A stretch of 62,961 bases of DNA, the filler included, from Sluysia triapertura (lineage: Eukaryota), in the NCBI GenBank assembly GCA_046118255.1. It is 5 parts of 5 records of this genome, joined end to end, with 100 filler letters (N's around TTAATTAATTAA, not from the genome) between each part and the next. Parts side by side here need not be neighbours in the genome. Positions count along the whole stretch, not along the records: positions 11,846 to 23,942 come from JBJNIA010140059.1; positions 24,043 to 37,256 come from JBJNIA010052444.1; positions 37,357 to 51,916 come from JBJNIA010255188.1; positions 52,017 to 62,961 come from JBJNIA010191107.1; 1 more part is not named here. The stretch is one strand, 5' to 3'. Below, piece after piece: positions 20,298 to 59,400 of this stretch; position 1 is the stretch's first letter; the number at the start of each line of letters is the position of its first letter. Below the pieces are notes generated by a model that worked only from the letters and a program-made list of their open reading frames with translations, made no database searches and had not been told where the DNA came from. Position numbers and translations under genes: made by a program.

Positions 20298-20476
20298 ACT
20301 GGTTGCTGCCATCACCAATGCTGACAGCCTATGTCACATTAACATTGAGCTGTCAGCCTTAATGATGGTCGGCCATCAGTTTTGTTCATCTCGCCAGGAA
20401 TCGAGTTGTTTAGTAATACCCAATCAGAGTACAACTGACTAAATTACAAAAGACAAATACCAACGCTCTGATTGGG
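20298..20476. promoter_or_regulatory. double-hairpin cassette (CCATCA/TGACAG hairpin plus inverted CCAAT hairpin) upstream of the YKT6 fragment
   Basis: An imperfect IR spans 20298-20380. A perfect 11-bp IR, CCCAATCAGAG (20419-20429) / CTCTGATTGGG (20466-20476), lies 90 nt before the ATG. The same arrangement occurs at 39643-39801. Regulatory function is inferred. Confidence 0.4.
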
Positions 20477-20565
20477 CAAACAAAAATAAATGAAGTGTGA
20501 CTAAAAATAGTAATAGTGCACATTAAAATTTTCCATTTATTGTTCTTAATCTTTTAACCAAGATA

Positions 20566-20935
20566 ATGAAAGTTTATGGTATTATAGTGATATATAAAGA
20601 TCACCCATGTGGGAAAACTATAATATTGCATTCGTGTTATGATTTAAATCAATTCAGCTATTTTCAAAGAGGAACTATTAAAGAATTATTGGATTTCACA
20701 TCTGAAATAGTCACAGAACGAACTGAAAGGTGCGTGCGGTTTTCAGTAATAGAACAAGAACATTTATGTCACACATATGTAAGGGCAGATTGCATATCAG
20801 GTGTTTGATTTTCTGATCAAGAATATCCTAAACGAGTTGCACAAACATTATTAACAAATTTATTAGAAGAATTTTTGATGCAATATACACTGCAAGATTG
20901 TCAAAATATGAATGAAAATAGTTCCAATTTTTCTA
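20566..20935 (+). pseudogene. YKT6: YKT6 longin-domain fragment with in-frame TGA; SNARE motif and CAAX absent
   Basis: MKVYGI..YDLNQFSYFQRGTIKELLDFTS..VTERT..SVIEQEHLCHTYVRAD..GV*FSDQEYPKRVAQTLL matches the Ykt6 longin domain. TGA is at 20806-20808. Similarity ends near 20935, although the frame stays open to 21084. Confidence 0.88.
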
Positions 20936-21323
20936 CATATCAAATGAATTCAACTAATTTAAAGTTATCGTCTAATATGAACAATATCGTGTATCTAACA
21001 ATAACAAAGTTTAATGCAAATATTTTGTCTCCAAAATTTATGTCCATTAAATTAAATCCATTAAAAATAATAATCAACTTCTAATTCATTTAAAGAACAG
21101 ACTAAAAGATATAACTCTATTCGTAAATAAACTGGATGCTTTTCTTAAAAATGCAACAAAAAAGAATCTTATAAGTGAACAAAGTCTAGAATTTCGAGAT
21201 CTATTCATAAATTTTTCAGTGATACCACTTATTGTGTCGACACAAGAAAACTCGAGTAATTATAGGGCCAAATTTTGGTTTCACAAAATTGACTAAAGCG
21301 TATTAGATAATAAAGAAATTATT

Positions 21324-21948
21324 ATGATTCTGGAAAGTAGTGTTATAGAATTTATATCATCATTTGTTAAGATGAATTCAATTAAGGAAACGGACAGTTC
21401 AACGAATCAAACAAGTTCGAAACACATAATGAATAAAACAGTTTCAAATAAGTCAATCGTCGAAAAATTTGTAAAGCAGTTTACATGTGTACATTCATCT
21501 TATTATCAAGAGACATTAGATTTATCTTGTTTTAACTTATCATTTCGTATGCTCAACCACAATTATCTTGCCTTTGACAATATAACAAGAAAAGCGAATA
21601 CACGAAGTAATCAAGAATGCAAAATCAAAGAAACGAACACGTTTGTAAATCCTAATAAGAGAAGATTTCCAGGATTGACAATTATACTTTACTCGTTATG
21701 TACACTTAACCCTAAGGCAAGCGAAATTTCCAATCAATTAGGGAATGATCAAGAATATAGCCTGTTTATTAGTACTATTAAAAGTATTTTCAAGAATATG
21801 TTCAACAAATCTTCTTCTCATCATTCTACCAAAGAAGATATTCCAAGATATGAAGATGATGCCGATCAAACCGTGGTATATATGTTTAGAGGTTCAATGC
21901 TGTTTGGAAAGTGAGACGCTGGACAGTCAGAGTGAATGGTACCAATAA
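21324..21948 (+). pseudogene. uncharacterised coding-like segment (196-aa ORF plus overlapping frameshifted ORF)
   Basis: A long ORF for this AT content, with no recognisable motif. It is flanked by interrupted coding-like sequence. Confidence 0.3.
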
Positions 21949-22013
21949 AGACTTTATGGAGAAATTAGATGGTTTTGTAAATGAATTTGAATAGCAAAAT
22001 ATTGTATTTAATT

Positions 22014-23375
22014 TTAGTATTTTAAAAGGTAATGAGGGCTTTTTTTATAAAATACATAACTACAATGGTGCTTTGCAATTTTAAAGATATCGCAAATGAC
22101 TCTTGATAAGTTAAGAGTTTTGAAGTTTGGTAGTAACGTCCGTGAAGTCCTTGAATGGTTATATATCACTAGTTGATTTGAAGCGTATGTGTCTACGTTA
22201 TCGAAAGATATTTCATGAGCCGAAATTTTATATTCAATTTTGGTAAGGAATTTAATTAACTTTTGTTTGTTGCTTGATTTAAGGATTTTCGGAGTTACTC
22301 TAATATTCGATTTGATGAAATTTTGCATTAAATTCTTATATAATTTAGTATTGAAAAAGAAATTATAACAACAAATTGATTTAATGTATTTACAATTAAG
22401 TTTTATGAATTTATGCTTTTCCGTATACAATAAAGATCCTGCTGTAACCGTTGCGAACTGCTTTTCTCCTCCCATGGTTCCGGACGTGTTGAAATATGAT
22501 GAAAAAATTCTATAATAATAAATATAAAATATATTGTTATTGAAAATTATAAATAAGTTAATAAAATTGAACTTAAATTTATTACTTTGTAGGTACGTGG
22601 TTTCTCCATAATTGTGAACCAGCTCGTCGTTTATAGTATACAATAATATTACCAGACCGTGTTCAACATTGTTTGCTCTCTGCTTTACACTAATTACATC
22701 ATGCGCACTCTGCTTTACACTAATCACATTGTTTACACTCTGCTTTACACTAATTACATTGTTTACATTCTGCTATACACTAATTACATTATTTGTACTC
22801 TGCTTTACACTAATTACGTCGCTTATACTCTGCTTTGCACTAATTATATCATACGCACTCTGCTTTACACTAATTACATCATACACACTCTGCTTTACAC
22901 TAATTATGTCATACGCGCTCTGCTTTACACTAATTATATTGTTTACATTCTGCTTTACACTAATTACATCGTTTGCGTTCTGGTTCACACCAATTACATT
23001 GTTTGAAATCTGCTCTATACTAAAGACATCCAAATATAAAAACGATCCTTGATCTAAAACTGAAAACATTAAAATAAATGCATCGTCTACATCACTCGCA
23101 TTACTAAAAAACACTAAAATAAATGTAGTTGCTTTCTGAACCCACAATCTTCGCATCGCTGGAAAAGCATAAGCATCAGAAATGTCTATAAACTGTACAG
23201 TAATTAATTGACCTTTCACATCGATGACTTTACTGAAAGTATCCTCAAGTGCTGGAGATTACTTTTCCACAAAAATATGTCGTAAAAACTGACGATTAAT
23301 ACTTGCTTTACCATCTCGCTCACAGCCTAAGATAATAATTATTTTAGTTTCATTTGTTGGGTACATTGCCAACAT
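22014..23375 (-). pseudogene. RASD/Rhes/Di-Ras-like small GTPase N-terminal half fused to a decapeptide repeat
   Basis: One frame from ATG 23375 reads KIIIILGCERDGKAS (decayed G1), FVEK*SPALEDTF (switch I; TAA at 23259-23261 where Tyr is expected) and FIDISDAYAFPAMRRL..FILVF (the FPAMRRL hallmark of RASD/Di-Ras). It then reads about 12 ISVKQ repeats (TAG at 22773) and continues to 22014. No G4 NKxD or CAAX was found. Confidence 0.8.
22666..23030. repeat. 30-bp tandem array, about 12 units
   Basis: TCTGCTTTACACTAATTA plus 12 variable nt, at an exact 30-nt period (22681, 22711 ... 23011). It degenerates toward 23030. Confidence 0.97.
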
Positions 23376-23942
23376 TCGATTCAAATTCGGATTAATATAA
23401 CTGATGAATTAAAACCAGGAAAACTTATACTACTCGATCAGTGGAAGTAGTGATAGTTATTTGTTAACAATTATAGCAGAAAAATGATAATAAAAATTCA
23501 ATCGACTAAAATCTATTCCTCCTTTTCAACTGATTTTAATTGAAGATATTTATATATTTTAATTTTTGGTATTGCTTTTAATCTAATATCGTTTATCCAA
23601 CTAAGAGGTAAATTATCAATTGTAACTGTGAAATAATTATAATTTTTTATCTGAATTATTTTGTATATGGCTGTATTGCTTTTTAATTGCCGTACTAGTT
23701 TTCCAACTATTGATTTTTTAACGCTTGTCTGGTTATTGTCTGATGATTACTAATTGTATCCACATACAAAGAAATATGATAAAAAATGGCTGTTGAAAAA
23801 TTGTTGTATATGCTAAACTAATATGCAATTATGCATTTAATAAAGACAGCTGTGGTTGTGTTTAGATCTAGCTCCACCCAATCATGTTTGAATGATATTA
23901 AATTACAATAATGTTGGGTTTGATTGGGTGGAGTGTGATTGA

Positions 23943-24042
23943 NNNNNNNNNNNNNNNNNNNNNNNNNNNNNNNNNNNNNNNNNNNNTTAATTAATTAANN
24001 NNNNNNNNNNNNNNNNNNNNNNNNNNNNNNNNNNNNNNNNNN
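23943..24042. other. artificial contig linker
   Basis: N44-TTAATTAATTAA-N44. Confidence 0.98.
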
Positions 24043-24883
24043 AACAATAATATTAACAATAATAATTTTAATAATAATTGATAATAATTTTAATAAGTAA
24101 AATGTTAGTAATAATAGATAATAAAATACAATATTAAAAATACTAACTTGGAAAATGGAGCATTTTGAAATTTGAAACATTAATTGAAAATCATTAATAA
24201 TAAAAGTTTAATTTTAACTAAATAATGTTTATATTTATGACTAATTTTAATTGTTAAATTTTATGAATGTTTAATGATAAATACTAGTAGATGAATGTTT
24301 AATGATAAATACTAGATGACTAATTTTACACTTCTGTGTCAGACCATAAGCTGACATTCGTATTTTCATATTTCATAAATATTTTTATAGGACTCTTCTG
24401 AATTTGAGTCTTGGTTAGTCAAGTTTATATAGAATAATGAAAATTAGTTTTGTCTCACTTTCTCAGAAATATGGAAACATTTTGTGAAATGTTGTGATTT
24501 TACACAAAAAGTAATAAGTATACTTGGAATACTAAGGCTGACTTTTATTGTAATAAACTGAAAATATTTTTCGGTTAAATTTTTACCTAATATTTGACAA
24601 TCCGTTCAGATAATGAAAATATGTTATTTTATTATATAAAATTTTATATTATTTAAATTTTAATTTTTAATATAATAATAATAATTTAATATTTTAAAAC
24701 TGAATTTTTGTATTTAAAAGTAAAATGATACAATAAAGAAATAAAGATATATTTGTTTTATTGCTTTTGGACATGGTTCAAATGAAAAAAATTAGATCTA
24801 TGAATTGAAAATTTCTTTTAGTCAATGCTGTTTAAGTGTCTGAAAATATTTTGTTGATTGATATAATAAGTTTATAATGTAAT

Positions 24884-25833
24884 ATGAGTTTATCAGAAGA
24901 GAATGACACCATTGATAAATATGGATTTATAGGTGGAACACAATATTCAAATTTTGAATCAAAGTAAATTAATCTTATATTTGTATTAATGGATTTGTTT
25001 TGTTTTGTAGTAAATAGAGATAAATTAAATAATAATGAGCGTACAATTAAAAAAATATTTTAAGTTAATATTCACTTTTTTAATAGTGAACAAGTTGAAA
25101 AACTTCGGCGTCGGGAAAGCAAGTGGCTACGTATTTTAAACAACTGGGATTATTACATGACCAAAAAATATGAAAAGTTACGTCGTAACTGTCGTAAAGG
25201 TATACCTGAAGGACTAAGAGCTCGTGTTTGGCAACATTTATGCGGTAGTCGTCAAGAAATATTTAAATTTTCCGGTCGTTATCAAGAATTAATTAACCAA
25301 GCCGGTGATTCTAAAATAACCGACCAAATTAGTCGAGATGTTGGTCGTCAGTACCCAGAACATGAAATTTTTTCAAAATCCGCCGGTCAAAAAGCTTTGT
25401 TTAATGTTTTAAAAGCTTGGAGTATTCTTCAACCATCAACAGGTTACTGTCAAGCTCAAGCCCCAATAGCGGCCGCTTTATTAATCCATATGCCAGAAGA
25501 AGAAGCTTTTTGGACATTTTGTGCTCTCTGTCAACATTATTTACCTGGATACTTTGATACCGGACTCGTATTATTTTTTTATTCATAATATTAAATTTTT
25601 GTAGGATAGAGTTCAGTTAGACGCTAAAATATTGTATGGATTATTAAGAAGGCATTTACCTCAAGCTTATAAACATTTGGTTTATTATTTATTTAGCTTA
25701 ATTATTTAGATTTTATAGATTGCTTTAGAAGTAGATCCTGTTTATTTTATGGTTGATTGGTTTATGTGCATATTTACCAGAAACTTTCCCTGGGCTACTG
25801 TTGTAAGGATTTGGGATATGTTTTTTTGCGAAG
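24884..25833 (+). CDS. TBC1D10: TBC1D10-family (EPI64/whacked-like) Rab GTPase-activating protein, exons 1-4
   Basis: Exons 24884-24963, 25087-25567, 25605-25679 and 25719-25833 (introns 123, 37 and 39 nt) splice in frame. Product: IDKYGFIGG..RRRESKWL..CRKGIPEGLRARVWQHLCG..ISRDVGRQYP (Arg finger)..GYCQAQAPIAA (Gln finger)..QLDAKIL..WFMCIFTR..RIWDMFFCE. Downstream exons were not located. Confidence 0.95.
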
Positions 25834-28750: not shown

Positions 28751-28778
28751 ATTGAAAATTATACATTATGTTTATTTC

Positions 28779-29312
28779 ACTATTATTTGTTTCCTGAGTT
28801 GCGACCTTGATATTTAAATATATTCCAATTTTTATGTATTTGGTTCTTTTATTTGAAATATCCATTCAACATTTAAAAACGAATTAAACATTTGATTAAA
28901 ATTTAACTTGCAAATTAATTTAATAAAACATAACATAACAATTTGATGATTGTAGATCACGTATGTTGTGATAGTGCCGAACTTTTATTTGTCTCGTTAA
29001 ATTGACGTTTAATACAGTGTCACTATATACACATTCAGATTTGAGCACACTAATAAGGACTTACACCAGAAAAATACAATAATACGAGAATCTGGAGAAC
29101 TGCCGCAAATAATCATAAAGTTAAGGTTAATTTTATCGGTGTTAGCATAGGTATATTTATTTAGTACTTTCTAACAATTTGTCAATAAATTTTAATCAAA
29201 TGTTTAATTCGTTTTTAAATATTGAATGGAAATTTAAAATAAAAGAACCAAATACATAAAAATTTGAATAAGTTTAAATATCACAGTCGCAACTCACGAA
29301 ACAAATAATAGT
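28779..29312. mobile_element. MITE/foldback element with ~125-bp terminal inverted repeats
   Basis: 28779-28905 (ACTATTATTTGTTTC..GAGTTGCGAC..TTTATGTATTTGGTTCTTTTATTT..TAAACATTTGATTAAAATTTA) is the near reverse complement of 29186-29312. The centre is non-coding. Confidence 0.85.
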
Positions 29313-31429
29313 AAGCTAAAGTTAAGAAATAAAAAGTTGACATGGAAATTTAATCAAACTTTCTTAAAAAAGAAAAATTTCTTCAAATTTTAGCAAGTCA
29401 AATCACATCACATCTTTAGGAGCAAACTTCTTAATTCCTTGCAGCATCCCTCAAATGAAGTAAACCTGTTATGATATGTATTTCCTGTTATGAGACATTT
29501 TTCAAAAGTTGTACCGATAATATCTTCAGTATAAGTAATCTCAAATATGCAACAGGAATAGTAATTTCATTTGGAATCATCAATGCTTCATTTTCAGTAA
29601 TTGTATCTAAGATTCAAATCAATCGATCTAATCAGTTCAATCACTCGCTCTTACATACTGTAATTAAACCTGTGCTTCAATTGGTACGATTTGTTTTTAG
29701 CGATCTTAAAATTGATAATGGGTCTGTTATATCCTAGTCAAACTGAAAAAGATAGTTTACTTAGAGATGAAATCGAAAATTTAGAAAATGTATTTAAAAT
29801 CGATTAACTAAAAAAGTTAAGTCAAAGCAAGAAAATCGTAATGAATATCAAAAATCGGAAGATAAATTATAAATCAGAAATACAAAATGTGAAAAATAAA
29901 TTGAAATTAGTGGAAAATCAAAACAGTATCAAAGTTAATCAATATCGAACTGAAATAGAAAAGTTAATTCATCAATATCAAGCGTCAATATTAATTTTCA
30001 TAATCTACAAGAAAATTATGAAGAATCCGAAAATAGTAACAATAATTTAGAAGACCAAATAAAATACGTCCAAGACGAAAATGAATGAAAATTTAACTTC
30101 TAAAGAATTTAATATGAAATATTATTATGGATAGATTTTAGAAAAACAAAAATACAGCATGAAGAAAATATTAAATAGACACTTAATGATTTTTCAAAAG
30201 CTCAACATTTACATAAATAAAAAATTAAAGAATTAAATAAGATTGTTTATAATTGTACATTATTAATATTGTTATTATCATTATTATTAGTGCCAGTCAC
30301 TAAATGATTAATCTTAAAATGAATATTATTTCAATTTAAAGAATGTCTGTATCTGTAAGAATTAATTATGAGATGTACAAACAAATAAAATGAATGCTCT
30401 TGATCGAATGTCTGATTGATAAAGATTGAATAAAATGAATGTCAAAAACTTAATAAACGTTTGAAAATAATGTTAATGATAATGAATGTTATTTTAAAAA
30501 TGTTTGAATTTTTAAAAATAATTAGTTATGATGAGTTATTTAATGCATTAGAATTTAAGCATAAATAATACATTAATTATTATAGAATTGGAAATTGAAG
30601 TTCAGTAAACATTATTATAAATATAAAATTATCTATATTATTGATTTTATTAGTGACAATTCTTTATATTTAAAATTATCAAAGCATTTGTACTTAATCA
30701 TATAATATTATTGTTAATACTTAATTTTTACACTGTAAATAAAAGTCGACTAGAATTTGTACTTATCTATCTGCAATATTGTAAGTGTGTTTAGATTCAA
30801 CATAATATGCGTTACTATTATAAACCATTTAATGTATAAATGAACAAATTTTATTAATTTAATAAATATATGCTGAATATTAAAAAATGTTTGCAATAAA
30901 TATTGTATGTAGAATAATTAATAAATTTTGTAAATTATAATATTGATTGATAAATTGGTATGAATCATAAAATTTTTATATCGTTTCTATTAAATTCAGA
31001 AAAATAAATTTTTGTATTAATAAACTCATAAGTAATAAACTAATGCTAAAAAGTAGTGTAAAAAGAATTTTATGTGCAAAAATATCAGAACAATTATTAG
31101 ACATTCAGCAGAGGATTTTAACAATTTTTGTCTGCATTGATCCAACAATTACTTGAAAATCTGATTGGACAAATTCGATATTATTTCACCTTGATTTAAC
31201 GGTTTCAATATTGTCTAATAGTTCTAATATTATCTGACAGTTTAGACTCAATTCTGATTCACTCAATGGGCGATAGTGGTCAATTATATTATGCAATTCT
31301 GAACTTAAAATTTTGAATTTAGTTACTCCTAAGAGCTTATTAAAACAAAACTAAAATTCTCTTGTATAAATATTTAAAATTTGTTATAAAATTTGAATTA
31401 TTATTTTATTCGTAATTATGAATAAGTAT

Positions 31430-32271: not shown

Positions 32272-32844
32272 TTATTTACAAATAAAAAGAATAGGATAAG
32301 AAAACACAATTTTATTATGATTACATATGAATACAACGTTTACTATAACTATTATGAGATGTTTGATAAATTTAAAGGTCAGGTTGGCTTCTGAACAAAC
32401 CATCAGTCTAATAATTTGAAGGTTTTTTAAATAAAAATAATTAAATTCAGATGATTGCATACGATAAAAATTAAAATTTACTTTTGATATTAAATTATTT
32501 CTAAGAGGATATGGTACCACATGGTTTTTCGTTCGAACTTGAATCTTGCGGATTGTTGAGTTTTCGTTTGGTTCTTTAATTCTTAAAGTTTCAATGAGAA
32601 TATTGATTCGTTTCCGATTGTCGCTGTGATCAATTTCTGTGATATCATGATAGTATTTGCATCTTTTACCAAATTTCAGACATATTCCAAATTCATTCGT
32701 TTGGGAAGTACACTGTGCCAAACGTTTGTGTATAACAAGAGTTGTATTTGAACTAGTAAATGTTGATCTAATCATATCTTTTCTTTGATTGTTTAAATCG
32801 ATCATTGTATTAAATTTATTTCTTTGTTTGATTTTATTCAGCAT
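32272..32844 (-). CDS. CCCH zinc-finger protein fragment (ZC3H3-like finger), possibly a pseudogene
   Basis: CTSQTNEFGICLKFGKRCKYYHD fits a C..C..C-x3-H finger. The last ~60 codons look like AT-rich intron read-through. Confidence 0.45.
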   Translation of the reverse strand: MLNKIKQRNKFNTMIDLNNQRKDMIRSTFTSSNTTLVIHKRLAQCTSQTNEFGICLKFGKRCKYYHDITEIDHSDNRKRINILIETLRIKEPNENSTIRKIQVRTKNHVVPYPLRNNLISKVNFNFYRMQSSEFNYFYLKNLQIIRLMVCSEANLTFKFIKHLIIVIVNVVFICNHNKIVFSYPILFICK

Positions 32845-32972
32845 ACCTTGTTGCGGTTGGAAAGTTAGAAATCCAATCTCTTTATATTTTTAAGTGCCAA
32901 AAATTTTTATAATTGTGCCGTTATTAGTAATCTACTAATGTACTAACGATTAGTGAGTAGCAGTGTGGCTTG

Positions 32973-33133
32973 TGATTGGACGTCCAGTAAAATGAGAAAT
33001 AAAAATATACAATTGATTGGACGCACCAAGAAACTGTACAAACAATAAAATAAGTTTAATGAAACTGTCAGCAGATGACCGTTGTAAATGATTTTAACTA
33101 ATTTTATTTTTCATATTAGTCGTCCAATCAGTG
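32973..33133. promoter_or_regulatory. putative bidirectional promoter with three CCAAT boxes
   Basis: TGATTGGACG twice and CGTCCAATCA once, between the divergent ORFs 32844(-) and 33242(+). Confidence 0.4.
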
Positions 33134-33700
33134 TTACACTGATAATCAATTTCGACGCCTTCTGCTTCTCAAAATTTTTAAAAGTAATTTTCATAATTAA
33201 AAATATTAAAATAACCAGCAGAGAAATTAAGTTTCAAAAAATTGCTAAAGCGTGAAAAGATTATAAAAAGAAGTAAATTGACGCCTAACCAAATGAATAA
33301 AAATTTACAGTTCAATTTTAAGTTTGATTCTGAAATTGAATTAATCACATCATTTCGTCAATCAGTAAATGAAACTAAAAAGCTATTTGGAGCACAATAT
33401 GATTATAATTGCCAAATATCTCATATCTTAATGAGGCTTTCTTTAGTATCAACTGAGAACAGCAACGAATTAATTAGTTTACTAGTTAGTGATGTATATG
33501 AAAGATTTAAATGTGTCAATTTTGAGCGCATAGGACGATGTTATTCGATTCTCATACTCAATTCAAGATACAGTTCCAGTTTTAGAATGGATAAAAGAAT
33601 TGTTTCAAATTTATAGTTGTAAATCATTGGATCCAATGTAAACGTATAGTAATCATTTATTATTTTTCAAAGACTAATAACGGACGTTTTAACTAGATAT
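33100..33700 (+). pseudogene. duplicated unknown gene 5' segment, copy A
   Basis: Clearly homologous to 39720-40315, including the upstream region: KRSKLTPNQMNKNL.FNFKFDSEIELIT..RQSVNETKKLFGAQYD. It is frameshifted and truncated. Confidence 0.6.
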
Positions 33701-35475
33701 ATTTCAAGATATTTCGCTGATGAAAATTTGTTTACATTTTGTTCAACTTTCACAAATTGTAGTCGAGCTATTTGAATAATTTCTTGGATTTTATTGTAAT
33801 TTTTGTGAGTTTTCGATTTCATAACGAAACCTTAAAATCTAGGTAAATTATTAAATTCTTTTCTAAGTTATGATTTAAAATTGCTTTTAAATTCGATTTA
33901 AAATTACAATAAGTTGGTTTTAATTATAAATTATTCTTAATTAATTTTGTAGCTAACTTGTTTTTTAATTTTTATTGAACTTATTTTTGTTGCTAATCAC
34001 CTATATTATTCGCTGTAAACACATCATTTTGTTAAAATATAAATTTCGAGTGTTTTGTTTAAAAATGTGATTATAACTTACCCCAAGAAATTTAGAAGGT
34101 TTGCCTGCAGTGAGGGGCTTACGACCGTAACTGTAGGTATCCTTATAGATTTTAAACTAATATAAACATTAATTGTTACTTTAGGGTTTTGTCGTCACAT
34201 TAAGGTAATATGTCTGACTGTATGTAATTTTTTGTGCTGCGAATCGGACCCGTTATACTGTAATTTCCAAAAGACTTAATAATTTACTTTTCTTTCTTAT
34301 GTGTGTTTTGTTAATTTGGATTTAGGACCACGTTAAAACGTCAACAAATAAAACAACAAATATCAATCAATTATAACAAAATAACTTGTAATTACAAAAT
34401 TTATGGAGTGATAAAAAATCACTTAGAAAGTGGAAATATTTAAACTGAACCCTTTAATTTTCTGATGTATCAAGTATCATTAATACTACAATTGTATATT
34501 CGATAAATTTAATTTTATTTTAAATTTGTATAAAAATGAAATTTAAATATAATTTAAACTTCCTTAAGGAAATGAAATCTTACTTTAATTAAACTAACGT
34601 AACTTCTTTTTTAATCAAAATCTGAATTTTTCTATGTTCTTTAGGTCGAACATTTCGAACTTGTTTCGAATAATAATAATTTCGAATACACCAAAAATAA
34701 CACCTATGAATTTCGTAATATTCATCAAATAATATTGATAAATAAAATTGTTGAAATAATATTAATATTGTAAATTAATGTAAAAAATAACTTTGTATCT
34801 TTATAAATTTATGCTTAATGCTGACTAACTCAGCATTTATAAAATAAATAAAGTTACCCAACGATTTGATATCAAAAGAAGTCATACCATATTTATTCTA
34901 CTCAAATTTTAACCAATAATTGTGTTGGCCAACCTTGCATTCAAAATTGTAAATATTTCAAAAAGCATTAAAACATGTAAACATAACCAACATTTTAAGT
35001 TCACAATTTGATAACATGTAAAATCTTTAACATCAAAAATCATTAAAATTGTCTTTCAAAGTTATCTCACAACAATAATCAAAATGGAATTTCTTATAAT
35101 ATCTCTAACTTCATTAAATTCTTTTTATATTTCTTTTATTCTATCCTATCACAATACGTATTTTTCTCGCAACAGACAATTTTCAGCAGATCCTAATAAG
35201 CTTTGTATTTTCCTTTACAGAATGTTTATGCATTCTATTATATAATGTTAACGTTAACGTGCTAATAATAAAGAAGTAATTATAATATGTTTTATGTTTT
35301 TTAAAAGAATTTTAGTTTTTTTGTGTTATTAAAGAAAAGAATATGTACAATAAAAGATTTTTATGCGTTTTATTTATTGTTATAATTTATTTTACTTTAT
35401 TATCAGTTTCATTACTTATTATTATTAATTTTATTTTTATTATTTTCATTATTATAAACTAGAATTTTATTATCA

Positions 35476-35479
<4 letters not shown>

Positions 35480-35525
<46 letters not shown>
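35480..35525. repeat. (TTA)n microsatellite
   Basis: A perfect trinucleotide run. Confidence 0.9.
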
Positions 35526-36284
35526 CAATGTTATTTTTAATTAATTCATCATTATTACCATTATTATATAATCTATCATTAGTTGATAGTTTTAATTAAA
35601 TAAAGTACAAGTCATCTTGGTAACTCTCAACTAATCACAGTTGCTTAATGTAGTAATTCAGTTTGATACAACACCATCTTTGTGATACCTATTTGTCAGC
35701 CAATGGGATTGTACTTTTAGTTTAATCTCAATGATTGGATTACTCAAACAATTACTAATAGTGACGTAACGTTAAAACAGTACACAGAAAAATTCTCAAT
35801 AATTTTTGTAAATTATCTTCAATTAAAAACATTTCTCATTGGTTTACTACTTATAATTGTGATAAATCGATCATATAAACATAACATTATTTATTTTATT
35901 AGACAATCACAATAAATAATTTTAAAAACAAAACTTGTTAATAATTCATTTGGTGTTGATATACAAATTCGTAAAATACTAATAAATTACGTATTTAAAA
36001 TTGTGGTATTGAATTAATTATAATTTTTAATTTTAAATTATGTCTATCTTTATAAACTAATTTTATCGTATTATTTTTAATGTTATAAAACGTTGAAAGC
36101 TTATAAAATCTTTAATACTTTTAATTAAATTTAAATCTATATTCTAATCAATTGAAACACAAAGAAATTTGACATTTTATTTGTATTAACAAAAATTTAA
36201 ATATTTAAATTTAAGTTTTGTTCGTGATTAATGATTTCTTGAGCATGTATCGGTGACAGCCTTTCTAAATTCCTAAAGAAAATA

Positions 36285-36420: not shown

Positions 36421-36489
36421 AACATTTGAGAAGACTTGTTTTCTTAATGAAATTAACAAACAAAAAAGATCATTTCAATTGTGGAGTTC

Positions 36490-38070: not shown

Positions 38071-39642
38071 ATTATTATTTAGAATTAAATTAATATATTT
38101 TTTACAATTATTATACTATTACATAATTTTATTTTTCTTCGGATATTCGGATATATTATTTACAGTAATAAACATGATAAAGGGATGTATCGCGTACGAC
38201 AAGAGGTCAGTAATGAGACTTTGTTACTCATGTGTGATAATTTCAGATTGTATAAGAAAAAGGCTATGAAAACCTTAAAATGATTTTTAAGGTATAAAAC
38301 GGATAAAAGTTTATTCGTTACTTCACTTAATTAGTTTAATTAAAATATGTTTTGTAAAATAAATTTCCATCAAATTGATATATTTGGACAAGTTACACAG
38401 TGAATAAAAGATGTAAGGTATCATTAATAGAAAAATGAAAATCTTACGATTTAAATTAACGGAGATAACGAAATAAATTATTATTTTAATTAATTTTAAC
38501 TGTTAACAATGAATCGTGTATCATAGAATAAATAGAGGAATCAGCGTTTTTTTCTAAAACTAACTTACAAAATGATTTTAATAGAATTTCGGATTTGCCT
38601 TTAGTCAAAGATTTATATCCATTGGAACACGTTTCTATAGGACTTAATACATTATATATTTGATGATATTCTTTCTTTGAACTACAAAGTATCTTTGCGA
38701 AATGGTCACACTGTTACACTACTGTGAATTAATTTTTTTTAATTTTTTCTAAACTATTAATTCAAACAATATTATAATCTATTTATATTAGCAATGTGAG
38801 TTTTCAGTAAGTTTTCCATAATCTGACTTATATTGAAATCTGTGGTGGTCAACCTTCACTATTATTAAAATTTATAAAAGTAATCCTTTAACATTCTAAT
38901 ATTCACATATTTATCTTCTCTACACTCACGAAAACAGTTCATCTGCCAGAATCAAGTCATATCCACAATCTCATAACATACAAACCATGCGTACATCCAA
39001 TACCATCAATTTACATCAACAGATCCATCAAAATATGTTGCTCGGCATTCAAAACAATCAAACTACAACCACATTCGAAATTAGCCACCTTCGAATCAAT
39101 TTCAACATTTTAAATTCATCATTTCTTATCACATAATCCCTAACAGAACAAAAGACAATACCACTTAAAAACAGCAAGAGAACAAATCATATTATCAACA
39201 TTGTACAATAACCTTTCGAATATTCTAAGAGTTGTACTATAATTTATCTCTTTCACATTCACTTAAACCAACCTTTACTTAAAGATTTTTAGTTTCAAAT
39301 ATGTTTAGAAATCTAAAGAATTTAAAGCAAGATTATGTACAGTTTTTAAAGAATTTAAGAATTCATGCAGTTTAATGAAAACAATAACTATAACATCGTT
39401 CCTCTTGTTATTGTTCTTATTACACTCAATTTAATTATTTTTAGTTTTGAATACAAAATATGTAAGAAATACAAAGAAAAGAAAGAAAGATTGTGAAAGT
39501 TTAGCAAGAATGTATGTATTTTTTTAAAATATTCTTAAATATTTTACATTTACTTAATGTTAATAATAATAGCAACATTGTTGTTATTATTATTATTAAC
39601 ACTGAACTTTATAATTTCATTTAATTACAAAAGTTGTATCTA

Positions 39643-39801
39643 CCATCACCAGTACTGACGTTGATGATTATTGTATATAGATTTATATCAGCACTGATGA
39701 TGGCTCATCACACAAGTATTCTAATTTTATTTTTCATATTAGTCGTCCAATCACTGTTACATTGATAATCAATTTTGACGCCTTCTGATTGGACGACTAA
39801 T
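39643..39801. promoter_or_regulatory. double-hairpin cassette upstream of duplicated gene copy B
   Basis: CCATCACCAGTACTGA/TCAGCACTGATGATGG (39643-39703), plus a perfect 16-bp IR, ATTAGTCGTCCAATCA (39738-39753) / TGATTGGACGACTAAT (39786-39801). Confidence 0.4.
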
Positions 39802-39853
39802 CAGATCAATCTGCTTCACAAAATTTTTAAAAGAAAATTAATTTGCAAAAAAA

Positions 39854-40597
39854 ATGCTAAAGCGTAAAAAGATTTAAAGATTTAAAAAGAAGTAAATTGA
39901 CGCCTAACCAAATGAATAAAAATTTACGGTGTAATTTTAAGTTTGATTCTGAAATTGAATTAATTACATTAATTCGTCAATCAGTAAATGAAACTAAAAA
40001 GCTATTTGGAGCACAATATGATTCTAATTGCCAAATATCTGATACCTTAATGGAGTTTTCTTTAGTATCAACTGATAACGGCAACGAATTAATTAGTTTA
40101 CTAGTTGATGATGTATATGAAAGATTTAAATGTGTCATTTTTGAGTGTATAGAATGACACAATCCAGGATACATAGTTCCAGTTTTAGAATAATAAAAGA
40201 ATTGTTTAAAATTTACAGTTTTGTATCATTGGATCCAATTTATACATATATTAATCATTTATTATTTTTCAAAGAACTAGTTCAGTTACTAATAACGAAC
40301 GTTTTAACTAGATATATTATATTTTTTGATTCTCATTTACTTGTATAGAATATGTTTAAAGAGAAAAAAAGCAATACTACATTGAATCAAATGAATAATG
40401 TAGATGAATCTATGATTTTCTTAATTGATTTTCTGAAAGGCTACGGTCGTATTAACATGTTGATGACTGCTTATAGTAAAGATAATTTAAAATTTATAGC
40501 ACAACATAATGTTCTACTACATGTTGCACTTTTATCCAGTTATTTTGCATCTTTTCATAATGAACCAACAATAACGTTTTGTGATGACTCATATTAA
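39854..40597 (+). pseudogene. duplicated unknown gene, copy B (longer, frameshifted)
   Basis: Homolog of 33242-33700, broken into ORFs 39897-40157, 40145-40348 and 40352-40597. A probable mini-intron ends in TGTATAG at 40348. Confidence 0.55.
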
Positions 40598-42493: not shown

Positions 42494-45400
42494 CTAATAA
42501 TTAATAAATTGTTATTCGCTGAATGATGATTTCGTTATATTCATTTTTAAAATACAAATTTAATGATTTTTGATGTAATGAATGATTTAGATGTAAAAGT
42601 ATGATTTTTAGTGTAGCGTGATGTATTAAATTTGCGTGAAGATGTTGGCCACCACAAACCGCAACACTACAAAGACGTTAAAGCACCCAAAGTATCATTT
42701 AAATTAATTGTTTGAAAAACTTTATGAATGAAAACTCCTTTGTAACATCATGAATCTTAAAGATAAATCACATATCTGAAAATCAAAATTAATACTACTA
42801 TTTCTTGTAATTCAAGTTTGTTTAGACAATGCACATGTAAAGTACAATTACCTTTTGATGTAATAGCTCCATCACCAAAGTCAAAATTATCGTTTTAATT
42901 TTAAAATCACAAAATGTACAAAACTAAAGTGTAATTAATACTGAGCTATGTATGAGGTTCGAACGTATTTCGAATTTAATGGTAAAATTAAATTGACACA
43001 AATGCAATCAAAATTCACAGTCAATTCATTAGCAACATGGATTAATAAATAATGTTAGTTTCATTTAATGTTATTACTTTTAAATTCATTCAATTAAAAA
43101 TAAAAATTAAGAAAATCATATACGATACATAGATACACATACAAAAATAAAGTATCAATAATGATGTATTTACAAAAAAAATCAATACAATTATAAGAGG
43201 AAAAATAATTGGTGGAAATTAACAAATCATCTTATGGAAATTATTTAATTGAATAAGTAATAAAATTATAATAGAAATAATAAAAATAAAAATCTAAGCT
43301 TCTCTTTTTTTATATGTACATAGCTAAGTTCAATTTTTTGTGTTGGGAACATTTTCTGTTGTTTTCTTATTCAATTTTTTGATTCTTTGTTTATATTTTT
43401 TATCAATTAATTTAATTATTTTTTCATTAAAATAAGCCAAATAACTGATTTTAGATCGACGTGGTCGCAGACACGTTTTTAAAATACCACCAAATTGAGA
43501 TTCTGAAATAAAAATTTACAAAAACATTAGCTATTTTCTAATAACAGTAAATTAAATAATACAAGTTGATATTGGTGAAATACTGAAAAAAGTTTAATTA
43601 AAATGATATAATAAAAACAATATTATAGAACAATAAAAACTTATTTCTTTTATTTAGCAACTATTTTCCAAAATTGAGTTACAAGTTTTCGGCATAAAAT
43701 CTTGAGAAGTTTTATTTGGTATTTACGCTAATGTAATATTTATTTTATCAATAATGTGAGCCCATAATAAATCTTGTTGATGCAAACTGTAAAGTGAAAG
43801 TTTGTTTAATTCCTCTCTGGTAAAAGAGATTGGAAGTGCAGATTTTGTCATTTACATCTAATTAGAGTTCTATATTTATATAGTGAAAAAATCCCCCTCT
43901 AATTAATTAATAAAAACAAGATATATACTACAACAGTTGAATGAATCAGATATAACATATGAACAGAGTAATAAAAATTGGATTAATAAAAACTTGAAGG
44001 TAACTTAGAGTCTAATATCTATGAGACTCTAATATCTTATTTTTTACTAAAATTTATATTTCATCGAACTGTTACGAATTCAAAATAATTTTTTTATTTT
44101 AAAAAATAATTATGCACGATCATCGGACAAGTACTAATCCCCTTAAAACAATCATGCCATCAGTGATTTGAAAAATGCTTTTCTTTGCAATGTTTCGATA
44201 TGTTGAAAGAGTGTGGGATTTCTGAAAATATTTATCGGAAAGTGTTGTTCCAGATTTATTACTCCATCTGAATTGTGGTCTAACACTCATGAGTTCGAAA
44301 TATTTTTATACTGAAAATTTCTGCTTGTCGAATTTCAACACCGAAAAAGTTGTAAGACGCGAAAATTATTATTATCATTAATTAACGAATTTAAATAATT
44401 TATTAAAATCGATGTCGGATAACTTTACGATTTTAATACTTAGCACTTCATCTATAAACAAATATTTTGTAGAACTAACTGCAAATACATTTAGTAGTAA
44501 GATCTAATTTACATTTTCTTAAAGCTCAATGAAAACTATTCTAATAGGTTTATAATTATCCAGATTATGAACTTGATAAAATGGTAAACGATTACATAAT
44601 TAAGGTCATATTGTTCAAAATAATAAACATGATGTTCTATGAACAAAATTTCAATAAATGTAACATAAGATCTGAAATTACCAAATATTGTTTTCACGAA
44701 TTTAATTATAATCGTCTAAAAATAAAACCTTCAGCAATTATACTGCAGTAACTTACTACTCGTTCTTATGACGCTACTGTTTAATTCTTAATCTTTTTGA
44801 ATTACGAATGAAGTTCATATCTATGTTCTATTTTTACTTCATTTTGATTTGACATTATAAGATATTTATTTTGAGATTTATTCTTAGTTTTATCTTATAT
44901 TAAATTTACTTGGGATTTAATTAATATTATATTATTATTTTAATAATTCACAATTTCGCAATTGCAATATAAGTAGGGAATTTAAAAGTAAATTAAAAAG
45001 TGATAAAGTAAAAAAATTAGGCTTGTAAAAATTTTAACAAGTTTGGAAGCAACATCTTTCCATATTCTCCATTTATTAATCCTGTAAAGGCTTTTCAAAA
45101 TTGAAATCAATTACTCATTTTCAAATATTCACTATGAACCTTTTGAAAAAAACTAAAGTTTTGGACTAAATTTTAGAAATATGAAAATTATTTCACTAAG
45201 ATATTCTAAATAGTTAATAGTTAAAGTAAAAATTCGCGAAATGGAAAATACATTCTTCAATAAAATGCTTTTACAAACTTGAATTAAACCCTGTATATTA
45301 AAGTTTAACTCTAAAAGAACTAATTTAAATAGCTCAATTTTCAAGGCGTTTTTATAATCATTTGAGTTGAGTATAAAATTATCTCAAATATCAACGATAC

Positions 45401-48400: not shown

Positions 48401-48496
48401 AAATAAACGAAACAAAAAGATTTCAGCAAATTTAAACAACTTACAGTAAAATATATAGTTAACCTAAAATATAAATTAAATAACAGAAATATTTAC

Positions 48497-51684: not shown

Positions 51685-51853
51685 GTATTTTCCGGATTAT
51701 AAGGCGCACTTTTAAAAAGATTTTAGCTAAATTTTAGGAGGTGCGCATTATAATCCGGAAAATACGGTAATAGAAAACTATACAAGCATTAACTTTGAGT
51801 AATTTCGTTAAGTTCACTTTTTAGAATGCGCCTTATAGTTAGGAAAATACGGT
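51685..51853. mobile_element. pogo/Tc2-like MITE plus an extra right end
   Basis: GTATTTTCCGGATTATAAGGCGCAC (51685-51709) pairs with GTGCGCATTATAATCCGGAAAATACGG-TA (51741-51769). A second right end, TGCGCCTTATAG..GGAAAATACGG-TA, lies at 51827-51854. Confidence 0.8.
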
Positions 51854-51916
51854 AATTATTTTATTACTATCTTTATTATTATTATTATTATTTTATTAAA
51901 AATCAATTTATATATA

Positions 51917-52016
51917 NNNNNNNNNNNNNNNNNNNNNNNNNNNNNNNNNNNNNNNNNNNNTTAATTAATTAANNNNNNNNNNNNNNNNNNNNNNNNNNNN
52001 NNNNNNNNNNNNNNNN
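51917..52016. other. artificial contig linker
   Basis: N44-TTAATTAATTAA-N44. Confidence 0.98.
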
Positions 52017-52869
52017 ATAGTAATTATGTTATTTAAATATTTTTGGTCAACGTAACAAAGAGTGATTATGACTACAATAAAATTCTTTGGTAAAAATAAC
52101 TTTAAAGAAAAACTTAATAATAATTTCTAGAGACAAAATACTTAATATTTTGATAGAATAAATTGCTTAGGGACTTTCTATTCAATTCACCTTAAAAATA
52201 ACTGAAAATCAAATGTAATCTTAACAAAATTGAGAAGAGAATCTCTTATCAATCATCCTTAAAAATAGCTGAAAATCAAATACAATTTAAATATATTCAA
52301 CAAAAATTACATGAAATGTTACTTAATTAATTATCTTAAAAATAACTGAAAATCAAATATAAACTTCATCAATTAAATGGAATGAAATGAACCAAAAAAA
52401 CCAAGAACGTCTATTTAATGAAATATTTACATCAATGACTGTGATACGAAGAAAATGGAGTGTGCGTTACAAGAAAGCAAATTCAAATATAATATTAAAT
52501 ATATATACTTCCAGAGTTTGTATAATGTGATGTATACTGCAAATGTATACCAAAAATATATTTGGTATTTCATATTTTTCATCATCATAATTATTTTGAG
52601 TATCTAAAATGTTCGATATTAACCTTAAATTATTTCACACAAAAATAGTTTTACAATTTTTAAGTGCCATTAATAAATATTGGTCTTTCTAAGTATTACT
52701 AAAGTTGGAATAATTAATCTTTAGGATTTTTAGAACAACAATGAATACAAGAAATAATTTATATAAATTATTTAATATTATTATTATTTATTTCTTATAG
52801 TGTGATATAAACGTGTTTGATGATAAAAACATGTATGCAAAATATAACATTACATTAAATTATAGCAGA

Positions 52870-54998: not shown

Positions 54999-55052
<54 letters not shown>

Positions 55053-55710
55053 ACTATTAATACTATTGTTTGGTTTCTTTATGATATAATCAAAATTGTA
55101 ATATCTTTTGTTTTGTCATTTGTATACTCTTTTAATTTGTAAATTTATATGTATTTTTGTAAAATATTTTTTTAGAATTTATTATTAAGAAATGTAATAT
55201 TAAATAAAAATATTGTTTGGAAATTTAATTTTTTGAATGAAAAGTAGTAATATATTTACTAAATGCAATATTATATTCATTATATTCGCTTATTATGCTT
55301 ATAGTTGAAACAAATAGCACCATTTCATAAGATGTGATATTAAGAAATTAATTTAAAATTATGTAATTTATGGATGAAACTAATTTTTAACTAATTTAAT
55401 TTTTTAACTAATTTTTCAACTAAGTACTTATTCAAAATTATATTAATTAATTTTTGTCACATTACAATTACTGAATGATCATAAAAGAATGTAGAAGTTT
55501 TACGTTGTAATATTTTTAAATATTACATAATATAAAATATCTTCAAAGTCAAAAAATTTAAAATTTTGATAAAATTTGTCTTCTTTTTTCATCTTTGAGT
55601 GACAATTTTGAACATTCTAAATTTATTAAAAATTAATTCCTTGAAATATGTTTCTTACCTTGATTTTTGACTCGTTCTTTGCCATATAAATTAATTTCGG
55701 CGATATCCAT
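52870..55710 (-). CDS. unrecognised spliced gene encoding a single-pass membrane protein (83 aa, or N-terminus of a longer protein)
   Basis: Exons 55710-55659 (AG|GTAAG donor), 53106-53057 (GTAAGT donor, 37-nt intron) and 53019-52870 (or to a donor at 52915) are phase-compatible. Product: MDIAEINLYGKERVKNQDILSKFVFSLIFKQIECQCKRAFDLVLVKWKWFLIVLLCVYYALIYFVFNGY(VMRKINCLLLKYLL*). Confidence 0.6.
54999..55050. repeat. (TTA)n microsatellite
   Basis: A perfect trinucleotide run. Confidence 0.9.
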
Positions 55711-56401
55711 TTTAAAAATTTTAATAAACGTTTTTGTTTCAAATAATAAAAATTTAAAATATCTAAATATTAATTTTATTATTAATTTTAATTATTAATT
55801 ATTTATTTTATTCATATTTACAAAATATTTCCAAAACAAATTTCAAATAAAAATTGTTATTTAAAACTGTAATTTAATCGAAGAAACATAAAAATCGTTG
55901 ATAAGTTAAATTCATTAATGAATATTTTATTTGTTTAAATAATCGTTAAAAGTAATATAACAAAAATATAATTTTAATAAAGTTAAATCAAACATATTTT
56001 ACAAATTAATAATATTCAAAGAAAATTATTGATTTTGAAAATAAATTTTACACATCAAACCAAATAATAAATGTTTAAATATTACAGTTTAAATAACTAA
56101 ATTATTGAACAATTTTCAAAGTAATGTACCGATATATAAAATAGTAATTCGATCAAAGAAATAGCAAATAATTTTCGACAAGACGTTTGACAAAAATTTA
56201 TTTTAAAAAATAAACAAATAGAACAATAGTGAAACTAAAACCTAAATCGATTTAAAAGTGTATTTTTTACTAAATCTAAGAACAAATAAAATTAGTATTT
56301 GAAAATAATAATAACATTTTAATGTACTTAGAATGTATTAATAAAAATGGTTTGCAGTATTATGCACTATTTTTATTAAATAGTTTTTATTTAATGTAGA
56401 G

Positions 56402-56413
56402 TTATTATTATTA

Positions 56414-56472
<59 letters not shown>
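56402..56472. repeat. (TTA)n microsatellite
   Basis: A near-perfect trinucleotide run. Confidence 0.9.
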
Positions 56473-59400
56473 TTATTGTTTTCCCATATAAATTTTGTTA
56501 TTAACATAAAATAAACAGACAAATTTAAATTATTGATTTAATCTTCAGTTAAAGAGTAATAAATTTCTGTCCATATACTTAATTCAAATAATATTTTTAA
56601 AAATATGAAAAAATATAATTTTTTGTAATTATTGTTTATTATTTAGTGTCAGAAATAACAAAAACAAGCAATAATTATTTCTGGGACTATTTTATGATTA
56701 TGATTATTTATTAATTTTTTTGAAAAACGTTAATCTATTTTCAACATGTTTTGAAAGATGGAAAATAAAGCCACCTGCTGTAATATGAAAAATAGATAGT
56801 TTGGAATAAAGAAATTTTAAATTGAATTTCGAATATTTAAATTTTATTTCTTCATGATCTTTATAATTTAAATATGATTTATTACATTTTATTCTTGGAA
56901 AATATTGTTTAAAAATTGATTAAATAAATAAGGAAATCTACATTTAATAAATTTATTTTTAAAGTTTGACAGACTAATAATTTTAAAATCGGTTAAGAGC
57001 ATCTTCTCCTTGACATGTTTCGGACTCAAAGTATTCAAGTCTCTAAATAACAATAGAGGATAATTAAACTTGATTATAAGAATATAAGTGTAATAGTAAA
57101 TAATGATTACTTTTAAACTTGAGAATTAAATTGTTGAAGAATTTCTCGATTAAAGTTGAATCCTTTGATGATGATGTGCGAAATTTTCCGACAGTCCAGC
57201 TGTGTTGTGTGAGTATGGGCAATTATTTCGTATCTAGAACAGCTTCCGTCTAGATTACTAGAGTAAAGGCACCAGCCCGATTTAAATTGTCTTAATTTTT
57301 CAACCAGATGTGATTGTTTTATTTGAGTATCAATAGTTAAATATTAAATATTAAATATTCTCCTTTAAAAAACATCCATTAATGATTTTAAAACCGCTAC
57401 AAGAAAAATTTAATGGATTCCAATTTTCAGATTGTAAAACTTGTATTCGGTTATGTTGGATTCGCTTTTTTATTTCCAACATAATTAAGTCATCTTGTAT
57501 ATTCATTGATACAATATTCAAGTCGTGGTTATGAATTAAATAATGATAAAAGATCAGTCATTATTACGCAATTTAGAACTTTTATAGATAATTCTTAATT
57601 CGTTTTCATTAATAAGAATTAACTTAAATAAAATAAAACTTTTAGCATTAAATTACAAACAAATAACAAAATCGTTTTCTGTTAGCTCCAAAATAAATGT
57701 AATTACATAAATTTACTTCAAACTTTCTTTTAGAAATATCAAATACATGATTATCTTTGATGACTTTATTTGCTTCTACCAAAATACATTCACCGCAAAT
57801 ATTTTTTAGACCATAAGTATTTTGTTTGATCTTGGATACATTTTCTTGGAAATATGAACTAAACTGTTTCAAAACTCTTCGAAAATTTCTAAAATATCCT
57901 AAACTTGATAAATTATAATCTAGACTTAGAACAACATAATGTCTAACAAAATGTCTAAATCTTTATTGTCGATGTATCGATTATACATAATATTGTTTTT
58001 ATTTCTTTCGGCATTTACTCCTTTCTCCTTTGTGGTTTGGGCTCATACACTGTGGGCATCAGTAACGACATGAAATCATGGAGTAATTAATTCAAGGTTT
58101 TCTTTATAATTTATTCTTTGGATTACTGTAACATGTGATTCAATATTCGAAAAGCATAGTATAAGAGATAAGCATAATTGAAGAGATAATAAGTAATTAG
58201 TATAAGAAATCCCATTATTTAAATTTTCGTCTTCTGACAACTTTACAACTTTAATTTCTCTTGTTTACAATATTTTTTAGTAATCATCATCTTTGAATTT
58301 ATTTCACAAACACTAGCACTTAATAGATCGAGTCTTCTATTTAAAACATCAGTGTCATGGACAGAGAGCATGTTTGAAAATTCACAATAAACGAAGAGTG
58401 AATTATGAAAGAGTGCTGCACGTCTATTTTTGCCAGTTTAAAATTAAATTAAATAAAATTGTAACTATTTTTAGTACTGTGCTGATAAACTGTCCTAATT
58501 GGCTGTCCAACCAGAGGTATAAAAAAATGAAAATAATTACTCTGGTTGGACGAATATTAATAATAGTAATAATGCTTCACAATGAAGACCAACCACCATT
58601 AACGATGACAACGAAATGTACATACGAATGAATAGTGTTACTGTTAATGGTGGTAGTTACAAAATTGATAGTTAATAATTTAAAAATAATGAGAAATTAA
58701 AATGATAATAACAATGTTATTATTATTATTGTTATCAATACATAAACCTTGAAAAATGTTTTATTAAACATGAACTTTCTTTAATAAAATTCTTTTTTCT
58801 GAGCATATTTAAATCTTTGGAACTTAATATCTTTAAATAAAATTGTTCTGGATTAGTTTGGTGTATATTTGATAGTTTAAGATGTAAATTGTAGTTCTAA
58901 TGTTGTGAGACTATAAGTTAAACCGTTCAAATGAAATTTAAATGTGTCAGTGATTTTGAATGATACTTTATGTAATTATGGTTATAACTGAAGATAAGTT
59001 TGAGTGTTGAAAACGTATGACTTAAGTATTTTGAAATATTATGCTTCATGTGAATTTGTGAATGAAAGTAATGTTTGGATGTTAGAAGGTTGTGACTTAA
59101 AATTGCATTGAAAAGAGAGTGGTTTCGTGGATGTAAAAAAGATAAATTATAGTGTAGATTTTGGTACATTCTAAAAGGTAATTGTGCGATATTGAGAAAA
59201 ATTATTCTGATTATGATGATGAGAGACTATGTAAAAAATGTTTTAAAAAATGAGTTTTAAAAAGTACGTTGTAGATTTTGAAAGTGAATGTGATTTTGTT
59301 GTATTTAAAAGAAAAGTTTTTAATAAAATTTGTTAAAAGTAATAGTTCGGCCACCAAACACGGAAACCAACATTTTAAAATTGAATAAATAAAACTATTG

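Follow-up and report, generated by a model that had tools for sequence, protein, structure and literature searches.

A twin-palindrome module, the probable promoter of captured host-gene pieces, in the long terminal repeats of a CsRN1-like Gypsy retrotransposon of Sluysia triapertura

The window analysed here is a stretch of 62,961 nucleotides in which five contigs of the Sluysia triapertura genome (619 Mb, 22-27% GC) are joined end to end, and the hairpin copies it contains are for that reason unlinked. It carries four perfect inverted repeats with a CCAAYCA...TGRTTGG core, here termed palindrome B, along with decayed open reading frames (ORFs) behind some of them and the remains of a long repeat in which they lie. 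A sequence-only reading of the window had proposed that the hairpins were either a type of promoter peculiar to this lineage, its NF-Y sites facing each other, or the structured terminus of an undescribed non-autonomous element. The evidence below makes it very probable that each hairpin is the second member of a twin-palindrome module in the 2.0-3.2-kb long terminal repeat (LTR) of a CsRN1-like Ty3/Gypsy retrotransposon, and that this module is likely to be an LTR promoter driving pieces of host genes likely captured from spliced RNA into the LTR.

All four inverted repeats are present with the arms and loops listed in Table 1, the paired CCAAC/GTTGG change in the copy at 58505 is confirmed, and the hairpin at 35700-35738 is indeed weak (folding z -1.3). 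The window has 4 matches to CCAAYCA-N20-45-TGRTTGG, whereas 100 shuffles average 0.01; in the genome as a whole, CCAAYCA-N25-45-TGRTTGG has 5,776 matches and its reversed form 192. Covariation was assessed on the first 49 genome matches with their flanks, the expectation being obtained by shuffling left and right arms between copies. Pairing exceeds the shuffled value upstream of the core at positions -3 (35/49 vs 24.3), -2 (39 vs 26.2) and -1 (44 vs 25.9), at the Y of the core (43/49 vs 24.5), and at +8 (42/49 vs 33.0), +9 (44 vs 35.6) and +10 (32 vs 14.1); these matches show no excess at -12 to -8 (except -7), at -4, or at +11 to +16. The test is inflated by relatedness between copies; different subfamilies carry different pairs. 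Covariation of the arms outside the searched core supports the earlier suggestion that pairing is maintained. An Rfam search of the window gave no match to the hairpins at the gathering score, the sole match being a tRNA-like piece at 640-711.

Upstream of palindrome B lies a larger one of about 61 nt, palindrome A, which the sequence-only reading did not contain, any more than it did the repeat of 2-3 kb around both palindromes. Its length is 59-61 nt in 82 of 103 modules, and the gap separating it from palindrome B is 15-86 nt; the covariation table of this 103-module set, for which paired arms had been chosen beforehand, was not used as a test. Among the 49 unbiased palindrome B matches, 43 have palindrome A, against 9 of 45 control segments, and when anchored on its terminal hexamers only (27/49 matches) it covaries at positions 4, 5, 9-13, 17 and 19. 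An excess of G-T over A-C was looked for among its non-standard pairs on the LTR sense strand and was not found: inherited pairs comprise 21 A-C against 13 G-T, and single-copy departures 29 against 26. Within a subfamily, most departures in single copies disrupt a pair: 55 are transition mismatches and 16 are mismatches of other kinds, whereas 15 are compensated. Decay after insertion would be expected to give this pattern. For two of the palindrome A hairpins in the window the strand opposite to the LTR folds better.

The twin palindromes sit 0.5-1.7 kb inside the 2.0-3.2-kb repeat. Relatives of the copy at 58505 continue beyond the module for about 0.7-1.05 kb and then stop sharply at 5'-TGTGGTGGCCAAC, the flanks being unique, and the exact 5' terminal motif occurs 4,412 times in the genome against 4 for the control. 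The repeat starts TGT(G/A)GTGGYCAAC and ends in CA or AA. In the subfamily of the copy at 38841 the full unit measures about 2.0-2.7 kb and closes with one to three copies of a 45-bp unit ending ACYAAA; the other subfamilies end in CA. Any terminal inverted repeat is 8 bp or less. An exact 5-bp target duplication surrounds 8 of 16 complete solo units, and 2 more agree at 4 of 5 bases, decayed duplications being expected since the copies are only about 65-90% alike. This tally excludes L139, L186, L201 and L205, in which the 3' end is uncertain and no duplication is exact, and also L081 and L082, both exact by eye. A symmetric A-T-n-A-T bias over 5 bp marks the 117 5' flanks sampled, and no flanks are shared among these and 30 3' flanks, so that linked copies must be rare. 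The pair formed by 38841 and a facing arm ending at 42656 was considered as terminal inverted repeats of one element and rejected, no 38841 relative reaching 42656 and the flanks matching at 2/5; likewise, no duplication was found for the facing arms in L078 and L101 taken as one element. Two 38841-subfamily copies in L147 are joined tail to tail.

The repeat is an LTR: the same unit follows integrase and a polypurine tract, precedes a primer site, and stands alone between 5-bp duplications. The tract, 8 purines separated from the terminus by a 4-nt spacer, is found with it at 28 genome loci against 0 for the control, and upstream lie RNase H and integrase, or a deleted pol. A stricter search, for 10 purines adjoining the terminus, had yielded 13 loci without common upstream sequence and so argued against an LTR; it was negative because the real tract has the shorter run and the spacer. 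Ten tract loci have at least 1.39 kb downstream, and the module is present at six of them (five within 1.5 kb, the sixth at 1.66 kb). At the other side, the far ends of some units run into a primer-binding site, a 13-18-nt motif starting TGG (420 genome matches, overlaps counted, against 1 for the control), which in some cases continues as a tRNA T-arm with CCA, copied in reverse. The 38841 subfamily, which occurs elsewhere as both 5' and 3' LTR, abuts the primer site and internal region at its far end in L402, L403, L404 and L408 and follows the polypurine tract in L452 and L453; the window copy itself is 67-83% identical to the LTRs behind integrase at the latter two loci. The integrase-linked LTR arm is matched by 21 of the 29 unbiased palindrome B matches with at least 600 nt upstream, against 1 of 39 on the other side, which tells against a host promoter architecture.

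One whole element of 4.2 kb, L389, has 107-bp LTRs that are 93.5% identical, the common terminus, primer site and purine tract, a protease ORF and an exact 5-bp duplication. In the fullest copy seen the internal region is about 6 kb. Pol runs in the order protease, reverse transcriptase, RNase H, integrase (PR-RT-RH-IN), with matches to RVP, RVT_1 (E 1e-28), RT_RNaseH, Integrase_H2C2 and rve in L454, L456 and L457; the Gag motif CX2HX9CX3C is present, twice, as is a GPY motif, and no env was seen. A homologue search returned unnamed Gypsy reverse transcriptases at 38-63% identity. Of the proposed structured terminus of a non-autonomous element, the link to mobile DNA thus stands; the hairpin, however, lies well inside a unit whose ends are those of an ordinary LTR, and some members of the family bear gag-pol.

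Primer sites in L366, L367, L368, L371 and L374 extend for about 45-50 nt as a reverse copy of a tRNA 3' half, covering T-arm and variable arm; such extended sites occupy 25 genome places, in L367 adjoining a Ras-like piece, and they suggest a reverse transcriptase reading far into its own primer. ARAGORN found no tRNA gene in 16 loci; the tRNA copied at the primer site appears to have a long variable arm, which would fit tRNA-Leu rather than tRNA-Trp. A unit consisting of LTR end, primer site and about 20 nt is duplicated in L329, L331, L332, L336, L375, L376 and L393. These duplications, like the 45-bp units of the 38841 subfamily, mean that solo LTRs carry primer-site remnants. The same primer site precedes different internal regions, with long His/Thr/Asn-rich frames, in L342, L343, L344 and L359.

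Past palindrome B the LTRs hold decayed ORFs of many kinds, among them primase small subunit, RRM, Longin and Ras, often followed by a CCCH finger. The primase family has 87 genome matches. The primase gene in L207 has neither LTR arm nor module, its frame looks intact, and it contains a 35-nt GT..AG intron which is cleanly missing from 13 of 14 distinct aligned copies and falls in a larger gap in the fourteenth; L207 is presumably the parent of the primase cargo. Similarity of the cargo to L207 begins near the parent start codon, right behind palindrome B, and ends at the next splice donor, past which the copies continue with a segment found at at least 150 places. In other lineages the primase piece is fused to N-termini of other kinds, and the position of the junction varies, an outcome to be expected of copy-choice recombination. 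The median ratio of nonsynonymous to synonymous substitution (dN/dS) is 0.11 for integrase (14 pairs), which is constrained; values of 0.54 for primase against its parent (47 pairs) and 0.50 for the shared downstream segment (39 pairs) are weak evidence, since a single reference is common to the pairs and transition bias is not taken into account by the method. Copies with a Longin-like cargo, which we take to be YKT6, have open frames of at least 680 aa in L233 (C204226) and at least 564 aa in L239 (C12957). In L457 a Myotubularin-like cargo (7247-8448, Pfam E 3e-11) lies in an LTR-type arm upstream of the gag-pol region.

Table 1. Copies of the LTR and their component parts in the window
Feature	Position	Strand	Remarks
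LTR copy 1	19907..21893	+	5' terminus 19907, both palindromes, YKT6-longin-like cargo; 3' end not located
LTR copy 1, likeness	20253-21893	+	67% to integrase-linked LTR arm in L457; 91% to L233
Palindrome A, copy 1	20308..20369	+	
Palindrome B, copy 1	20419..20476	+	CCAATCAG arms; 11 bp, loop 36 nt
Broken cargo ORF, copy 1	20566..21914	+	begins about 90 nt past palindrome B; 17 related genome places
Longin-like N-terminal part of copy 1 cargo	20809-21084	+	Longin E 3e-6
Decayed Ras-like ORF, candidate cargo	22773..23370	-	about 500 nt past the hairpin at 23872; Ras E 0.0095
Palindrome B (probable)	23872..23933	-	13 bp, loop 36 nt; contig end 23942 cuts arm
Partial copy (probable)	32272..33025	-	degenerate palindrome B near 32972-33025; ORF with CCCH finger
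38841-subfamily fragment	33098..33706	+	palindrome B right arm deleted; 72-82% to family members
Decayed copy	34921..35738	+	5' terminus 34921, ATT tract, degenerate palindrome A, weak palindrome B 35700-35738
LTR copy 38841	38841..40592	+	3'-truncated; 79% to L136 over 1.73 kb
Palindrome A, copy 38841	39643..39703	+	
Palindrome B, copy 38841	39738..39801	+	16 bp, loop 32 nt
5' end of independent LTR copy	42534..42656	-	faces copy 38841, not its partner; matches other arms
LTR copy 5	56922..59358	-	decayed 5' terminus 59358, arm, palindromes A and B, decayed cargo; 3' end not located
Palindrome B, copy 5	58505..58551	-	CCAACCAG arms; 12 bp, loop 23 nt
Palindrome A, copy 5	58592..58654	-	

The window copies appear to be solo or truncated LTRs, some of them cut by contig ends. 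The Ras-like ORF is a probable LTR cargo; it is 88% identical over 75 nt to a piece adjoining another LTR copy, L367, and about 15 tandem 30-bp units, open in several frames, adjoin it at 22615-23060. Ordinary host genes are represented by a TBC RabGAP exon at 25064-25588 (+) and an aquaporin (MIP) exon at 3886-4311 (-). The best named matches of the TBC-domain exon, 51-57% identical, come from trematodes, which makes a flatworm host probable. Other repeats lie nearby. The tRNA-like piece already mentioned has a counterpart in inverted sense at 19670-19745 (91% identity over 75 nt), the two probably belonging to a tRNA-derived repeat that occurs at many loci. Two contigs share a 214-bp repeat (12414-12627 and 52017-52230), an inverted repeat pair of 147 bp, 88% identical, encloses 280 nt at 28759-29332, and a GC-richer piece at 13054-13716 looks, by eye, like a non-LTR reverse transcriptase remnant. 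An 18-bp perfect inverted repeat with a 45-nt loop at 51685-51765 has no relation to the CCAAY module.

In the mechanism that we favour, the element would have transposed through reverse transcription and integration of the ordinary kind, the solo copies would be cassettes left by LTR-LTR recombination, and template switches to co-packaged host and sister-element RNAs would have swapped the cargo. Palindromes A and B would be a promoter at the end of the unique 3' region of the LTR (U3), a plausible role that is suggested by the position of the cargo ATG, 89-133 nt past palindrome B in three window copies. The weakest step is a twofold assumption: that protein binding accounts for the fixed cores and spacing, and that the covarying positions stem either from arm pairing in a single-stranded intermediate or from arm-to-arm copying during replication of active lineages. 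The NF-Y box reads CCAATCA, and CCAAC lies outside the NF-Y consensus; CCAAC arms being common, NF-Y alone cannot explain the covariation. The terms 'NFY' and 'CCAAT' are absent from the main text of PMC11410931, and passages from PMC8532177, PMC12471100 and PMC2774510 contributed nothing further. We further offer, as a tentative proposal that is rather less likely to hold than to fail, that the LTR of this Gypsy lineage has become an expression cassette that shuffles exons: during minus-strand synthesis the repeated and unique 5' regions (R/U5) would take in, right behind the twin palindrome, the 5' portions of spliced host mRNAs, whose exon ends would be linked to a CCCH-finger tail that they have in common, each of the thousands of solo LTRs would be a ready chimeric gene, and the paired palindromes would fix the capture point.

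A number of observations weigh against an LTR promoter with captured cargo. Six of the 16 complete solo units agree at no more than 3 of 5 duplication bases, the search for duplications itself helped to place some unit ends, and a loose automated test was weak (10/60 exact against a null mean of 5.2, p 0.03). The core is not invariant: 27 of 49 left arms have CCAAT, in keeping with the NF-Y box seen in the sequence-only reading, and the other 22 have CCAAC, both arms being of the CCAAC type in 20. The module is missing from 4 of the 10 tract loci, and LTRs of 107-522 bp without it exist, which means that for at least one element copying took place in its absence. This fragmented assembly yielded no two giant LTRs that match closely as a pair. 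The two sides of C65850 are 69-72% identical in four short stretches, those of L457 are 66-83% identical with different cargo, and the 5' side of L458 is not LTR-like; likeness of about 70% between flanking LTR-type sequences could be due to inter-element recombination, age or nesting. As for the cargo, the YKT6-like sequences evolve neutrally (median dN/dS 1.24, 12 pairs), and 32 of 32 copies retain a 55-nt intron-like piece near the LTR 3' end. Finally, the hairpin at 23872 is probably palindrome B of a minus-strand LTR copy, a membership that we infer.

The most serious alternatives keep the LTR and change the role of the palindromes. They might be stem-loops akin to the trans-activation response element (TAR) or polyA hairpins, formed by RNA or minus-strand cDNA in a long R region and serving strand transfer or packaging, with the promoter further upstream in the arm. 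The many covarying positions of palindrome A, its fixed length, the frequency of CCAAC arms and the better folding of the opposite strand in two window hairpins fit such a role, and section 9 of PMC3601003 links conservation of long R regions to stem-loops; the sense strand, however, lacks a G-T excess, loops are unrelated between subfamilies, and cargo start codons follow close behind palindrome B, so that we regard this as possible and on balance doubtful. A little less likely again is that cargo and module form an internal transcription unit within U3, the element's own start site lying near the LTR 3' end. The LTR of mouse mammary tumour virus carries the sag gene as an internal unit of this kind. 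AATAAA within 270 nt of the 3' end in 9/9 complete units checked, and short LTR variants without the whole cassette, agree with it, but AATAAA is common in such AT-rich DNA and may be there by chance, and the primase cargo, beginning at the parent start codon, fits an RNA 5' end at palindrome B.

Readings without an LTR or without mobile DNA fare far worse. If the units were Helitron-like elements, or DNA transposons able to capture genes (Ginger2/Tdd-like or Pack-TIR), with no more than a resemblance to LTRs, this would account for the lack of pol near most copies and of a matched giant pair, and the TGT start and 5-bp duplication also fit TDD-4/5 as described in PMC2836005. On the other hand, terminal inverted repeats measure 40-270 bp in Ginger against 8 bp or less here, Helitrons insert without a target duplication, the flanks here showed no fixed A/T, and the loss of the intron is precise; the direct joints of the units to polypurine tract-integrase and to the primer site largely refute them already, and we consider them very improbable. 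Slightly more improbable still is a promoter of the host itself, specific to the lineage, with NF-Y sites that face each other and no tie to mobile DNA. In its favour are the identity of CCAATCA with the NF-Y box and the 8 of 29 matches without likeness to the tested LTR arm; opposed to it are the prevalence of palindrome A and of the LTR arm beside palindrome B, the nature of the genes behind the hairpins, which are decayed multi-copy fragments, and the intact-looking primase gene that has no module.

An LTR promoter with captured cargo would, if correct, supply an animal genome with chimeric genes at high throughput, as the numbers of primase-like matches and of copies of one downstream segment indicate; two LTR copies with open frames of at least 500 aa bear on this. 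It also accounts for thousands of CCAAT-like palindromes which motif scans would take for host promoters. In the described route of retroposition the host piece lies between the LTRs and is lost on recombination to a solo LTR; cargo inside the LTR survives solo-LTR formation along with its putative promoter. Gypsy solo LTRs and LTR-mediated gene capture are already known. Among the papers listed in a literature search without Repbase and most subscription journals, no title or abstract opening described the module or host-gene capture inside an invertebrate Gypsy LTR.

Comparison with known systems places the element nearest the CsRN1 clade (CsRn1, PwRn1, AgCR), for which PMC2582038 gives the Gag motif CX2HX9CX3C, a tRNA-Trp primer and a 4-bp duplication, and PMC3601003 the att consensus TGTGGYG / MSYYAMA and LTRs with a mean of about 330 bp. 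Shared with the clade, as described there, are the CHCC Gag motif (here twice), the PR-RT-RH-IN order, the GPY motif, no env seen, a flatworm-like host, and LTR ends that fit the att consensus (PMC3601003 Table 3). It differs in its 2.0-3.2-kb LTR, its 5-bp duplication, a primer site apparently not for tRNA-Trp, and the twin palindrome and cargo ORF within the LTR; because duplication, LTR length and probably primer differ, we file it as CsRN1-like and not as a member. With Ginger2/Tdd it has in common the TGT start and, as in TDD-4/5 (PMC2836005), the 5-bp duplication, but it lacks long terminal inverted repeats and has primer site, polypurine tract and reverse transcriptase attached. Burro/GYPSM1 of planarians and Ogre of plants, in the account of PMC6431247, are likewise Gypsy elements with long LTRs (1.9-6.5 kb in Ogre) and captured domains, and Burro's planarian hosts add a likeness of host; here, in contrast, the internal region is about 6 kb rather than 25 kb, no env-like region is seen, and the extra coding sequence lies in the LTR and not in the polyprotein. 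The cargo recalls the animal LTR-mediated retrocopies described by Tan et al. 2016 (PMC5131818), which arise from spliced mRNA by template switching and lie between two LTRs: in both cases there are pieces of spliced host mRNA, multi-gene chimeras and further amplification, and one switch point here falls at a parent exon end, as reported there for BLASTOPIA. The retrocopy in that account replaces part of the internal ORFs, whereas here the cargo lies within the LTR itself, in hundreds of copies per type.

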